Position numbers and translations under genes: made by a program. Below the pieces are notes generated by a model. The model was not told the origin of the DNA. It worked only from the letters and a program-made list of their open reading frames with translations, and made no database searches. A stretch of 27,445 bases of DNA. Source: a virus. Lineage: Duplodnaviria; Heunggongvirae; Uroviricota; Caudoviricetes. The stretch's first letter is position 1, and each line of letters begins with the position of its first letter. Location: positions 1 through 27,445 of the IMG/VR virus record IMGVR_UViG_3300024246_000004. One strand, given 5' to 3'. Shown one piece after another: positions 3,275 through 21,147 of the stretch.

Positions 3275-3364
3275 GCGCGGCGGCGGGTTTTGAATGGATC
3301 TTGGGTCCGCTATGGCCGCCGCAGGCCCGCTAGAACCAGCAGGACCTTCTGTACGTCTCCTCAA

Positions 3365-4553: not shown

Positions 4554-4784
4554 TCAGTGTCCTTCCGTCGTGATGGTCCAGACCTGGCCGGTGTCGGTGT
4601 AGGACTGCCAGCGCGAGTCGGTGATCTCGTGGACCTGGCCGCCAAGCAGCAGCCAGCCCTCGTCGGGGGCCAGCAGCTGCTCCAGCAAGTCGTCGGTGAG
4701 GACGTCCAGGTCGTCCGAACCCGACTCGAAGCACCCCAGGAAGTTACGCAGGACCTGACGGAACTCGTCGCGCGCTTCACGCAT
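4554..4784 (-). CDS. Hypothetical protein, 76 aa (paralog family B)
   Basis: TGATG overlap; GWLLLGGQVHEI...VWTITT resembles 18493-18744 and 18737-19153. Confidence 0.7.
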   Translation of the reverse strand: MREARDEFRQVLRNFLGCFESGSDDLDVLTDDLLEQLLAPDEGWLLLGGQVHEITDSRWQSYTDTGQVWTITTEGH

Positions 4785-5197
4785 CAGGCGCGGTCCGTTC
4801 CGAGCCACGGTGCCTCGAAGTCCACGACGCCCTCGGCGTCCTCCAGGGCGACCACGCGGTCCCGGCTCAGATCCCGCACCGGTGGCTGGGCGAGCCGCAC
4901 GGCGATCTCCTTGAGCCACTTGCTCCGGTTGCCCCTATCAGCGGGGTTGGTCCCGTCGAACACGTTGTACTGATCGTAGAGGCCGAGCGCAAGCACGGCC
5001 TGCGAGTACGCACTGAGCGTGCCCTCGTTCGCCCGGCCCGCGAATGCCGGGTGGTTCCTCCACAGTTGCCCGAGAGGACAGTCCTGGTAGCTGGCCATAT
5101 CCAGCTCGGCCTCGTTGATGTAGTGCTCCCAGCCGGGCAGGTTCCGGTCCAGGAACACCGCCGCGATGCGCACCGTCTCAGGCACGAAGGTCTCCAT
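4784..5197 (-). CDS. Hypothetical protein, 137 aa (paralog family A)
   Basis: AAVFLDRNLPGWEHYINEAELDMASYQDCPLGQL; TGATG overlap. Confidence 0.8.
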   Translation of the reverse strand: METFVPETVRIAAVFLDRNLPGWEHYINEAELDMASYQDCPLGQLWRNHPAFAGRANEGTLSAYSQAVLALGLYDQYNVFDGTNPADRGNRSKWLKEIAVRLAQPPVRDLSRDRVVALEDAEGVVDFEAPWLGTDRA

Positions 5198-5403
5198 CAG
5201 AGCGTCTCCCCCCACGGCCAGAGGTTGCCGCCCTCGGCCTTCATGGTGTCGTCGAGGTAGTTCGCGATGTCGAGGATCATCTGCTTGACATCCTCGCGGT
5301 CCCCGTCCTCCAGGTCGTCCAGGCGCTGGTCCTCGGCGAAGAGGTTGCCCAGCAGGTCGGCCGCGATCTGCTGGGCCAGCTTGGTCTTCTCGGTGATGTC
5401 CAT
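5197..5403 (-). CDS. Small acidic hypothetical protein, 68 aa
   Basis: AGGAGG RBS before ATG 5403; stop overlaps next start. Confidence 0.75.
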   Translation of the reverse strand: MDITEKTKLAQQIAADLLGNLFAEDQRLDDLEDGDREDVKQMILDIANYLDDTMKAEGGNLWPWGETL

Positions 5404-5405
5404 GG

Positions 5406-5774
5406 TCAGCCCTCCTGGACCGCGCGGCGCGCCTCGATCAGGGTCACGAACTCGCTGGTGCTGTGGGAGAAGTTGTAGAGCCCGGCGTCGTCGATCCTTG
5501 CCTGGGAGCCGATGGCATCCCCGAGCTTCTCCAGCGCCTCCGTCCAGCCGTCGCAGTCCGCGAAGTACGGGTGCACGTTGAGCTGGTAGCCGAGGACGCA
5601 GCGGGAGACGCTCCACATCTGCAACTCGGGCAGGTGGATGTTCTCGTCCCAGCCGGGAACGACGTTGTCGAGCAGCAGCGCGGCCCGCGCGGTGGACTTG
5701 CCGATGCCGAGTTCCTGCGCGAGCGCCTCGACGGCGGCCTCGTCGGGCTCCGGAATGAGGGTCAGGTCGATCAT
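5406..5774 (-). CDS. Hypothetical protein, 122 aa (paralog family A)
   Basis: RAALLLDNVVPGWDENIHLPELQMWSVSRCVLGYQL; AAGGAGG RBS before ATG 5774. Confidence 0.8.
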   Translation of the reverse strand: MIDLTLIPEPDEAAVEALAQELGIGKSTARAALLLDNVVPGWDENIHLPELQMWSVSRCVLGYQLNVHPYFADCDGWTEALEKLGDAIGSQARIDDAGLYNFSHSTSEFVTLIEARRAVQEG

Positions 5775-5806
5775 ATGGACCTCCTTGTATCGGGATGGGC
5801 GGGGAG

Positions 5807-5881
5807 TCCCCCTGCGCGGACTCGAACCGTGCCTAACGCAGCTTGCTGAGGCTGCGCACCTCTCCGGTCGAGGCAGGGGGA
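5807..5881 (-). tRNA. Atypical tRNA-like element with 8-nt anticodon loop (CU-CAGC-AA)
   Basis: Minus strand: acceptor UCCCCCU(G)/(C)AGGGGGA; D arm CCUC-GACCGGA-GAGG; anticodon stem (GC)GCAGC/GCUGC(GU) with loop CUCAGCAA; T arm CACGG-UUCGAGU-CCGCG (one mismatch). No encoded CCA. Confidence 0.7.
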
Positions 5882-5946
5882 TGCGCCCGGCGGCGGGGAC
5901 ACCCTGGGTTGCGTGCGTCACTTGGCCGCCGGGCGGTCGTGCGGTG

Positions 5947-6702
5947 CTACTCGGCCGGGGTCGCGCTGCGGCGCCCGCTGATGATCTTGAGCCACTCCGA
6001 GCCGTAGCTCGCGAAGGCGGTCTCGTGGCCGAACGTCACGGGCTCCTGGCCACGCAGGAACTCGACGGTGTCGTTGTAGTTCACGTAATCCGAAAGCCTC
6101 CCGTCCTGGCTGGCGAGCTGGCCGAGGATGCACTGGTCAGTGGACCCCATGTCCAGCACGTCGAGGTCGATGAACTGCTCCCAGCCAGGCAGCTGTCGGT
6201 CGAGCAGTTCGGCGGAGCGCATGGCCGCCCTGGAAACTCCCACGGCGTCGGCGCGCTCTCGCAGGCCCTGCTCGCGCTCCCGGTGGGCTTCGCGCTCGGC
6301 CTGCACGCGCTCCCGCGCCTCCCGCGCCTCCCGCTCGGCCAGAGAGAACAGGCCCTCGGCGCCGGTGCGCGTCTCGTACGCCTGCTGCGCGCTGTTGCGC
6401 CTGGCCGCGTTGGTGCTGCGGTACCGCCGCACGATCCGCTGCACCTCGGGGGGCAGCGCCACGACCTCGGGCGGCGTCAGGCCGAAGTCGTCGCCGCGCT
6501 CGATGATCAGGGCCTCCACGGTGGCGACCTGCACGGGGGTGGCGAAGGACTGGAACTCGTTCCAGAGGCCCTGGACGGCCGTGTGCGGGGTGCGCCCGCC
6601 CAGGAGGGCGTCCATGTACAGCGTGTGGACGTGCGTGGCCAGGGTGGCGGCTTTCTCGGTGCCGATGAACTCGATGGGCGCTTCCTGGGTGTCTTCGGTC
6701 AC
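5947..6702 (-). CDS. Hypothetical protein, 251 aa; C-terminal family-A domain after a coiled coil
   Basis: AAGGAGG RBS before GTG 6702; RSAELLDRQLPGWEQFIDLDVLDMGSTDQCILGQL in the C-terminal third. Confidence 0.8.
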   Translation of the reverse strand: MTEDTQEAPIEFIGTEKAATLATHVHTLYMDALLGGRTPHTAVQGLWNEFQSFATPVQVATVEALIIERGDDFGLTPPEVVALPPEVQRIVRRYRSTNAARRNSAQQAYETRTGAEGLFSLAEREAREARERVQAEREAHREREQGLRERADAVGVSRAAMRSAELLDRQLPGWEQFIDLDVLDMGSTDQCILGQLASQDGRLSDYVNYNDTVEFLRGQEPVTFGHETAFASYGSEWLKIISGRRSATPAE

Positions 6703-6782
6703 AGGTCCTCCTTGGTTTCGGGGAAGGTGCGGCGTGGGGAGCGCTGGGCCTCGGTTCCTCCCTGGCCGCTCGGTTCGGGAGT

Positions 6783-6811
6783 AACGTATCACGGTGCGCG
6801 TGAAGCGTCAA
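6783..6811 (-). promoter_or_regulatory. Strong sigma70/HrdB-type promoter TTGACG-17-TACGTT
   Basis: Near-consensus hexamers with 17-bp spacer, about 80 nt upstream of GTG 6702. Confidence 0.75.
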
Positions 6812-7226
6812 CCTTCGCGGTGAGGTTCCTCGGGGGGCGTCCCGAGCGCGCGCCGCCGCGCCGCTCCACCTGCGAAGCCCACGCCCCGTCCAGGAGGTTG
6901 ATCCTGTAACTGTTTACGTTCGCCCACACGCTCCCGTCGAAGCCGTAGTCGTAGAGGGTCTGCGCGAGAGGCCACTTCCCGAACACCACGAAGGCGGCGC
7001 CGTGGTACGTGTCGGTGGATGCGGCGGCCAACTGCGGGTGCATCATGGGGAGCATGCGCTCGCGCACGCGTGGATCGTTGAGCATGAGCTGGCCCAGGAC
7101 GCACAAAACGGGGCTCGCCATGTTAATCCGCGCGGCGCGCACATGGAGCGCCCAGCCCGGCAGTTCGTCGTCGAGGAGGAGCGCACCACGCTGGGCTCGT
7201 GCGCTAGTCGAGGCGTTGTTGACCAT
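6789..7226 (-). CDS. Hypothetical protein, 145 aa (paralog family A)
   Basis: QRGALLLDDELPGWALHVRAARINMASPVLCVLGQL; GGGAG RBS. Confidence 0.78.
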   Translation of the reverse strand: MVNNASTSARAQRGALLLDDELPGWALHVRAARINMASPVLCVLGQLMLNDPRVRERMLPMMHPQLAAASTDTYHGAAFVVFGKWPLAQTLYDYGFDGSVWANVNSYRINLLDGAWASQVERRGGARSGRPPRNLTAKVDASRAP

Positions 7227-8622: not shown

Positions 8623-8701
8623 CTGTGCGGCTGGCTGCTTCCTCCCCGGAGCTGGCCCGGCTCCCCCACCCGCCGAGTGGGTTCGATTCCCACTGCACGG
8701 A
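8623..8701 (+). ncRNA. Degenerate tRNA-like element lacking a D stem
   Basis: Perfect T arm GUGGG-UUCGAUU-CCCAC (8677-8693); acceptor CUGUGCG/UGCACGG with two GU pairs; 5-bp stem with 7-nt loop GGAGC-UGGCCCG-GCUCC; no D stem, no U33. Confidence 0.35.
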
Positions 8702-16069: not shown

Positions 16070-16326
16070 TCAGCGCCATGGCTGATGGCCGTGTGGCCAG
16101 TCCCTGCCGCGTTGGCACAGTCACCGGGCATTCGTGAAGGTTGAGTACGGTGCGAGCTCCCACTGCTCCACCAGCGCATGGAGAGCGCTGGGCCAGGATC
16201 GAACTGGCGACCTCACCGGAATCGTGCCTCGGGTTCTGTGTTACTCCACGCTGTCGCATTGTTTCATTCTGGAGCGGTATTCTGAGGTGTGATTCTCAGT
16301 TTTAGCTTCAGTTTGAACTTGCGCTC
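16070..16326 (-). ncRNA. Circularly permuted tRNA-like (YrlA/Y-RNA-like) ncRNA; core 16109-16251
   Basis: 5'->3': CGGUG, AGGUC (variable loop), T arm GCCAG-UUCGAUC-CUGGC, acceptor hairpin CCAGCGC-UCUCCAU-GCGCUGG, UG, D arm GAGC-AGUGGGA-GCUC, G, CACCG. All four tRNA helices are perfectly paired. The anticodon stem continues as a long interrupted helix (GGCA/UGCC, CCG/CGG, CACAG/CUGUG, GCGUGG/CCAACGC). Extra 5' and 3' hairpins set the outer bounds tentatively. Confidence 0.85.
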
Positions 16327-19867: not shown

Positions 19868-20380
19868 ATGCCAGTACTCTCCGAAGACCCCGAGATCGAA
19901 GCCACCGTCCGCGCCGCCCGAGGTGCCGCGCACCTGGACGCCCAATTCCCCGGATGGGAGGCGTACATCGACGTCGAGGCCCTGGACCTCTACAACGGGG
20001 AACTGTGCGTCCTGGGCCAGCTGGGCAACAGGCACCCCGGCTTCGCCGACATCGAACGGCGCGCCTTCAGCTCCTCGTACGCGGATGCGGTCAAGTACCT
20101 GTGTCCGTCCCTGGACTTCACGGACAGCGGTCCCACAGCGCTGGCGTGGCCGCTGCAACACGGCTTCCTCGCCATTCCCGATCACCACCCCGAGTTCGAC
20201 GGGGTGGGCTACGAGCGCCTGCTGCCCGCGTGGAAGGCGGCGATCGGCAGGCGCCAGGAGCGCTTCGCGGTGCGGCCGTCCTCCACGCTGCCGGTCGAGG
20301 CGGCGACGCGGAAGCAGGACGAGGCGTTCCGCGACGAGTACGAGGCGCGTGGGATCTTCGCCGACTCGGAGGCCGAGTGA
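19868..20380 (+). CDS. Hypothetical protein, 170 aa (paralog family A)
   Basis: ARGAAHLDAQFPGWEAYIDVEALDLYNGELCVLGQL; AGGAGG RBS region. Confidence 0.8.
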   Translation: MPVLSEDPEIEATVRAARGAAHLDAQFPGWEAYIDVEALDLYNGELCVLGQLGNRHPGFADIERRAFSSSYADAVKYLCPSLDFTDSGPTALAWPLQHGFLAIPDHHPEFDGVGYERLLPAWKAAIGRRQERFAVRPSSTLPVEAATRKQDEAFRDEYEARGIFADSEAE

Positions 20381-20988: not shown

Positions 20989-21063
20989 GCGTCCGTATGC
21001 CCTCCCCCTTCTAAGGGGCTGAAAGGCTAATGGATCATGTGGGTTCGAGCCCCACCGGACGCA
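20989..21063 (+). tRNA. Atypical D-armless tRNA-like element (possible UCU anticodon)
   Basis: Perfect acceptor GCGUCCG/CGGACGC + A73; U8A9; T arm GUGGG-UUCGAGC-CCCAC; loop CU-UCU-AA on a 4-bp CCCC/GGGG stem; only 5 nt where the D arm should be; 19-nt variable region; no CCA. Confidence 0.55.
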
Positions 21064-21147
21064 CTGCACGGCCATATGCCCCCCGGTGCCCGAGAAGCCC
21101 ACGCCGTGCTACGCTAGGCAAGCTCAGAGGCCAACTGGATGTTGAGA

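Follow-up and report, generated by a model that had tools for sequence, protein, structure and literature searches.

The phage DNA analysed here (the window, 27,445 nt) is the left end of a 91-kb virus contig of 66% G+C and carries a tRNA-like gene with an 8-nt anticodon loop, which is probably a non-decoding passenger of an accessory operon, at most a mark for an RNA cutting site, and not a frameshift suppressor, since six related phages do without the element and no gene was found that needs it. In the fuller form of this explanation, to which we give about an even chance, the element is a tRNA-shaped RNA that is transcribed with its neighbours, can be cut by RNase P, does not decode and serves to punctuate the accessory operon. 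We infer an actinobacterial host for this soil phage from its base composition, its Leu tRNAs with short arms and its weak matches to genes of Streptomyces phages. The parts of the element are:

5806 to 5880, minus strand: tRNA-like gene, 74 nt up to the discriminator A (5807), plus a C (5806)
5874 to 5880, minus strand: 5' strand of the acceptor stem, 7/7 Watson-Crick pairs with 5814-5808, pair probability ~1
5859 to 5873, minus strand: D arm, 4 bp with a 7-nt loop containing GG
5836 to 5857, minus strand: anticodon arm, a stem of 7 bp closing an 8-nt loop at 5850-5843, with CAGC at 5848-5845
5815 to 5831, minus strand: T arm, canonical UUCGA loop, five stem positions, one A-C mismatch

ARAGORN makes a single tRNA call in the window, at 5806-5880 on the minus strand with anticodon (cagc). 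The original prediction had placed the gene at 5807-5881, where the element indeed lies, but the gene is on the minus strand with base +1 at 5880, and 5881 is the U at -1. The loop that it had read as C-U-CAGC-A-A is seen at 5850-5843, with C32-U33 and A37-A38 retained, and is 8 nt long in all assemblies; the anticodon stem of 6-7 bp is likewise confirmed as six Watson-Crick pairs and a single G-U, with pair probabilities of 0.97-1.0, and the linker of at most one nucleotide separating the acceptor stem from the D stem was found to be 0-1 bases. The D stem abuts the acceptor stem with U8 absent, or, in an alternative register, follows one linker C as a 3-bp stem; one U separates the D arm from the anticodon stem, the variable loop has 4 nt, and the total length is 74 nt (canonical, 73). 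The acceptor stem has C1-G72 and C3-G70 and is without G3-U70, and CCA is not encoded, as is also the case in most array tRNAs of the phage. An acceptor plus T helix of 13 bp, also suggested previously, requires a U(-1):A73 pair and the A-C mismatch; the natural register is the canonical 7/5 one of 12 positions, of which a single one is mismatched, the one that is A-U in a cluster M phage tRNA-His. The 8/4 and 7/5 registers are equal in energy, and 7/5 is favoured by the CAT leader and by the His-like 3' half, which is nearly the same in the cluster M phage tRNA-His.

The element is real and far from chance expectation. Its 75 bases are identical in the ENA MEGAHIT contig and the Logan contig of SRR7687014, and over 11-17 kb the three assemblies, each a different one, match with 100% identity. 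Phage DNA simulated with a Markov-3 model (12 Mb) contained the strict acceptor plus T pattern three times, and never together with an anticodon hairpin; in 6 Mb of simulated phage DNA ARAGORN made four calls, none with an 8-nt loop.

What has changed is more than a single-base insertion: the loss of U8, the 7-pair anticodon stem, the T-stem mismatch and the predicted D-T pairing make this a remodelled tRNA body. The Rfam model RF00005 (gathering score 29 bits) does not report the element even at E up to 10, and scores the array tRNAs at 30-76 bits, the majority above 45. With a custom covariance model built on 60 tRNAs from the phage itself and one relative, the element scores 25.7 bits (E ~1e-4), where canonical tRNAs from other members of the phage group reach 53-75 bits. 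U8 is present in 59 of the 60 array tRNAs and missing here; A14 and purine-15 are each found in 58 of 60, and no register of the element keeps both. The cloverleaf, described as complete in the original prediction, can be drawn but is not the predicted fold: a rod is better by 7 kcal/mol (the median gap for array tRNAs is 2.2). The predicted ensemble retains only the acceptor and anticodon helices, with D- and T-stem pair probabilities of ~0, and the D arm, which on its 5' side is close to complementary with the T arm, is predicted to pair with it there. No near parent was found in the genome by isotype search, the best global matches being Glu, Lys and Leu with similar scores; the His match, from the blastn search of phages, had E 0.07, and the isotype signals are mixed, with a Leu-like D loop, a Cys/Leu-like anticodon stem and a His-like 3' half.

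The element is tRNA-derived, yet it stands outside canonical tRNA, allo-tRNA, tRNA-Pyl and YrlA, and of the features of suppressor tRNAs it has only the loop. With the canonical CCA-less actinobacteriophage array tRNAs (RF00005) it shares the 7-bp acceptor stem, the T loop, the D-loop GG, C32-U33, A37-A38, a discriminator followed by C, and the hairpin-CAT leader; unlike them it stands alone in an accessory operon, without U8 and with a 7-bp anticodon stem and an 8-nt loop, and it departs from canonical tRNA in lacking the U8-A14 core, the 2-nt linker, the 5-bp anticodon stem and the 7-nt loop. The suppressor and quadruplet tRNAs (sufD tRNA-Gly, SufJ and the qtRNAs of PMC9094753) have in common with it the 8-nt loop, U33 and purine 37, but they combine a normal chargeable body with a target site, whereas the element has a remodelled body and no target was found. 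Like the tRNA-Pyl of M. barkeri and of M. alvus and like mitochondrial tRNA-Ser(UCN) (PMC7609411) it has 0-1 linker bases, a long anticodon stem and a short variable loop; it differs in its stem of 7 rather than 6 bp, its 8-nt loop without CUA, and A73 and C1-G72 in place of G73 and G1-C72, and identity with tRNA-Pyl was rejected on the anticodon, G73, G1-C72 and the 6-bp stem. The allo-tRNA/tRNA-Sec-like molecules (8/4, 9/3, 8/5; PMC5389517) have a long variable arm, a long D stem with a tetraloop and G73/U73, and were rejected because the element has a 4-nt variable loop, a 7-nt D loop and A73; a YrlA/Y RNA-like identity (RF02553) was discarded for want of an Rfam match. The yeast mitochondrial tRNA-Thr (PMC3113583) also has a natural 8-nt loop, but it is conserved, charged and reassigns codons.

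The gene lies between two members of one paralogue family in a leftward operon, the features of which are listed here, followed by the leader-box copies of the whole window:

6811 to 6783, minus strand: predicted promoter TTGACG-17-TACGTT, conserved in relatives (function inferred)
6769 to 6729, minus strand: first leader-hairpin copy, downstream of the promoter
5947 to 6702, minus strand: 251-aa accessory gene, with the LD..PGW family domain at the C-terminus and a unique N-terminus, in a lineage-specific block
5884 to 5935, minus strand: leader hairpin and CAT, the box GCGGCCA-N27-CGCCGC within an 11-bp stem
5780 to 5786, minus strand: ribosome-binding site of the downstream gene, 20 nt past the discriminator
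5406 to 5774, minus strand: 122-aa accessory gene, LD..PGW family, with orthologues in four relatives without the upstream tRNA-like element
3280 to 3319, 5890 to 5929 and 6729 to 6769, minus strand: leader-box copies in the window
8330, 13907, 18179 and 19800, plus strand: leader-box copies in the window

The transcript carrying the element likely starts at the 6811 promoter, a call that rests on conservation (a generic sigma-70 scan found no promoter). For the neighbouring proteins, a word search gave no close relatives, neither Pfam nor PHROG had a family for them, and the Atlas held no useful hit. The LD..PGW...C.LG paralogue family (4784-7226 and 19868-20380 in the window) counts 8808 representatives at E up to 0.001, often with tandem domains, and also has no Pfam or PHROG family.

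The leader ties the element to the array of about 37 tRNAs that lies just outside the window (genome 28.5-37.4 kb). A hairpin-CAT leader also precedes several array tRNAs, e.g. Glu(UUC), Ile and Asp, and CAT is the commonest -3 to -1 triplet among the tRNAs of these phages (21/181); because this architecture is common to both, we regard the element as a displaced array-type cassette. The leader box has 17 matches in the genome against 1.7 expected, 16 of them outside genes, and 23 copies against 2.9 expected in G002, the nearest complete relative; the copies sit after promoters and a few bases 5' of array tRNAs. In the general form GCGGCCA-N26-28-CGCCGC, with the inner C and CCA conserved and the spacing fixed, it is also seen in G002 and in L123-L127; more distant relatives show no enrichment, and Rfam has no match. 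The flanking pairs covary and tolerate G-U in the manner of an RNA stem, part of which is built into the search pattern itself. The box could be an RNA processing or antitermination signal.

Relatives were found via the capsid gene and neighbouring proteins, and six of them cover the syntenic site; the element is absent there in all six. In four, the promoter, hairpin and ribosome-binding site lead straight into the 122-aa orthologue; the 251-aa gene is missing, as is any tRNA-like sequence, and one of these four orthologues is extended at its N-terminus by an unrelated stretch. At this site G002 and L125 carry different genes. The block from ~6729 to 5804 (~0.9 kb, the 251-aa gene plus the element) is found only in this genome among those sampled, and the sequence 3' of the element looks like the ancestral leader's 3' arm and spacer. 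The 7-nt loop in reads or relatives, named at the outset as a refuting result, did not turn up: the assemblies have 8 nt, and the relatives lack the whole element, which is not conserved.

No homologue of the element was found in the viral, metagenome, genome or phage collections. The anticodon-arm pattern had three matches in viral contigs, attributable to chance only, as were the matches of the D-loop plus T-loop pattern; the loop plus T-loop pattern found 25 stretches, none with this anticodon arm; and the T arm plus acceptor pattern recovered ordinary Leu, His, Thr and Arg tRNAs only. The search of the genome collection gave 0 matches, blastn of the element against phages gave no homologue, and distant paralogues of the 251-aa gene have no tRNA-sized gap after them where neighbours are visible. 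The literature search turned up no description of such elements in actinophages.

Of the four readings in the original prediction, i.e. a natural frameshift suppressor, a nuclease decoy, an RNA-processing signal or a decaying tRNA, the last two fit best. We propose that an array-type cassette (hairpin, CAT and CCA-less tRNA) joined the accessory operon together with the 251-aa gene in this lineage only, and that its core is remodelled and no longer decodes. The RNA would be co-transcribed from the 6811 promoter; host RNase P would measure the 12-bp acceptor/T helix and cut at 5881/5880, and 3' processing past the discriminator would proceed as in the CCA-less array tRNAs. The upstream cistron would be left with a protective 11-bp hairpin at its end, the downstream cistrons would begin 20 nt 5' of their ribosome-binding site, and the freed RNA, poorly or not charged, would be non-decoding, with a role of dispensable mRNA punctuation. 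The anatomy, the cassette identity, the absence from relatives and the absence of cognate frameshift sites are the observed parts of this scheme.

RNase P cleaves substrates that consist of an acceptor stem and T arm only, and also cleaves mRNAs, and the parts retained here, a 12-position acceptor/T helix and a U at -1, are those that RNase P reads (PMC11143913). The intact acceptor stem (7/7) and T loop, set against the lost U8 and A14/purine-15 core, support a non-decoding role, as do the absence of frame breaks and of GCU-G avoidance and the service of GCU and CUG by the array. Three more elements in the window with a T arm and a broken core, and a lone tRNA-like gene in the Streptomyces phages Ididsumtinwong and PapayaSalad, lend further support. 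Against this scheme, the rod predicted for the unmodified RNA hides the T loop and would hinder RNase P; the downstream gene is expressed in relatives that have no element of this kind, which is thus not needed; and the perfectly paired anticodon hairpin with C32-U33 and A37-A38 exceeds the needs of a pure cutting site.

The other tRNA-like elements are described here in their own right. The one at 20989-21064 (plus strand; G002 orthologue L055:1251-1328, minus strand) is a tRNA-like RNA with no normal D arm and, at 29.7 bits, clears the cut-off of the Rfam tRNA model; its hairpin covaries, and it has an arginine anticodon in both phages (UCU here, ACG in G002), which suggests selection on anticodon identity. 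The T-arm element at ~8650-8700 (8681, plus strand) directly precedes the next gene start and is kept in all six relatives that cover the site. The stem upstream of it covaries, and the most divergent copy is that of this genome. A T-arm element at 16183-16251 (16204, minus strand) follows a DUF7873 gene and has counterparts in G002, G003, G004 and G023. Outside the window, a degenerate short tRNA-Tyr(GUA)-like gene without U8 is found at genome 33836-33907 (L004:6837-6908), where G002 has a normal long-armed tRNA-Tyr; more odd tRNA-like genes occur at genome 32667-32754, at 6603 and 11651 in G002, at 72557 in G021 and at 41395 in G023; and in G004 several aberrant tRNA-like sequences cluster near normal tRNA-Phe and tRNA-Leu (L070:7406-7970). 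A second, isolated tRNA-Ile(GAU) lies far from the array in both phages (genome 59294-59366, minus strand; G002 106709), so lone tRNA genes can be maintained here. In Ididsumtinwong and PapayaSalad (L178:327-423 and L180:330-423) one and the same tRNA-like gene has a Leu annotation in one phage and an Arg annotation in its counterpart, and most of the differences fall in the long-hairpin anticodon arm. That gene (KY092479.1, KY092481.1) resembles the element in its position between small genes, its T and D arms, its aberrant anticodon arm and its lack of CCA, but it has a canonical D arm with U8 and a long-hairpin anticodon arm, and direct homology was not seen.

A rather unlikely alternative to operon punctuation is that the tRNA gene hitch-hiked in the cassette and is now a decaying relic of no role. 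Its single occurrence, with no homologue in any collection scanned, the T-stem mismatch and the competing rod fold speak for this, as does the finding that every related phage has odd tRNA-like genes of its own, e.g. the degenerate Tyr-like gene at 33836. Yet about four indels have left just one broken pair in 23 stem positions, and in simulations the stems and T loop stayed equally intact in 0.7% of cases after 12 random substitutions and in 27% after 4; the genome has no near parent of the element from which to count the changes. From the clean stems it may be argued that selection acted until recently.

It is also doubtful that the freed RNA serves as a decoy, its exposed CU-CAG/AGC-AA loop or its tRNA elbow absorbing host nucleases that target tRNA in defence. 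Fast turnover is typical for counter-defence genes, and such turnover counts for this reading; so do the anticodon hairpin, which is intact and predicted to be very stable, and the sister element at 20989, which retains an arginine anticodon on a scaffold without a normal D arm. In mycobacteria, host anticodon nucleases have been proposed to shape phage tRNA loops (PMC10264068), which again favours a decoy, but that proposal concerns the resistance of working tRNAs rather than decoys, and the element has neither a known target nuclease nor conservation.

Improbable is a working triplet tRNA (Leu CUG or Ala GCU) in which a compensated, tRNA-Pyl-like frame carries the extra base as a nuclease shield. 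The near-canonical length agrees with it; working tRNA-Pyl and mitochondrial tRNA-Ser(UCN) do have a short or absent linker and a longer anticodon stem (PMC7609411), and the yeast mitochondrial 8-nt loop is believed to read triplets (PMC3113583). Those tRNAs, however, have 6-bp stems and dedicated synthetases, against 7 bp, no U8 and no G3-U70 in the element, and the array already covers both codons, GCU by Ala(GGC/UGC), among its three Ala anticodons, and CUG by Leu(CAG).

The natural +1 frameshift suppressor of the original prediction, a GCUG reader, fared poorly and is very improbable, as is its most complete version, a naturally evolved tRNA of compensated structure (linker absent, anticodon stem of 7 bp, loop of 8 nt) that a host synthetase charges and that reads GCUG as four bases in host mRNAs or at a site in the genome part not sequenced. 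The loop does have the sufD-type layout (U33, four bases, purine 37), and with purine 37 fixed CAGC would read GCUG; by base pairing, P-site re-pairing after a +1 slip is unavailable for CAG/AGC, and true four-base reading would be required. An 8-nt loop had been taken as the hallmark of such suppressors but is not diagnostic of them: the one in the natural yeast mitochondrial tRNA-Thr is believed to read triplets (PMC3113583); quadruplet tRNAs made by single-base insertion are often inefficient or toxic (PMC9094753). Charging is doubtful in the absence of the Ala (G3-U70) and Streptomyces Leu (U8-A14) identity elements, the latter required by Streptomyces LeuRS (PMC6614811), and the element gives no clear charging identity; synthetases for other amino acids might charge it.

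Nor was a cognate broken gene found in the contig. No broken gene appeared in 165 protein comparisons, and closer relatives, covering 82 of 135 genes, revealed no frame break (12 flagged joins were gene junctions or antisense frames), with the terminase frame intact; this check spans the contig, from which ~28 kb, about a quarter of the genome including tail and replication genes, is missing relative to G002, a gap that leaves the suppressor some room. In-frame GCU-G occurs at 66 sites in 44 genes, nine of the sites in the portal, protease and capsid genes (identified from position, size and a head-protein match). The GCU-G odds ratio of 1.04 is slightly below that of G002 (1.58), as a suppressor might lead one to expect, but it indicates no depletion, and G009, a relative in which no tRNA was found, has a like ratio (0.97). 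Four GCU-G sites would fuse to a downstream gene, but those genes have their own ribosome-binding sites. A +1 fusion of the 251-aa to the 122-aa gene through the element was rejected (the frame is open from ~6036 and the overlap has no GCU or CUG codon), as was a coding role of the open frame 5921-5406, which has no ribosome-binding site and whose full-length orthologues start at the 5774 position.

An assembly or sequencing artefact hiding a true 7-nt loop is scarcely credible: the three assemblies are probably from one sample, but they agree completely, no homopolymer run occurs in the loop, and the remaining deviations would persist.

The element adds another odd tRNA-like gene to a phage group that already carries several, and provides an example of a tRNA cassette relocating from the array to an mRNA operon. 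It also illustrates that suppression is not predictable from an 8-nt loop alone. Were it charged and did it read in fours, it would be a quadruplet tRNA of natural origin on a new frame, of use for expanding the genetic code. Stronger leads in the vicinity are the repeated leader hairpin and two conserved elements, at 8681 and 20989.
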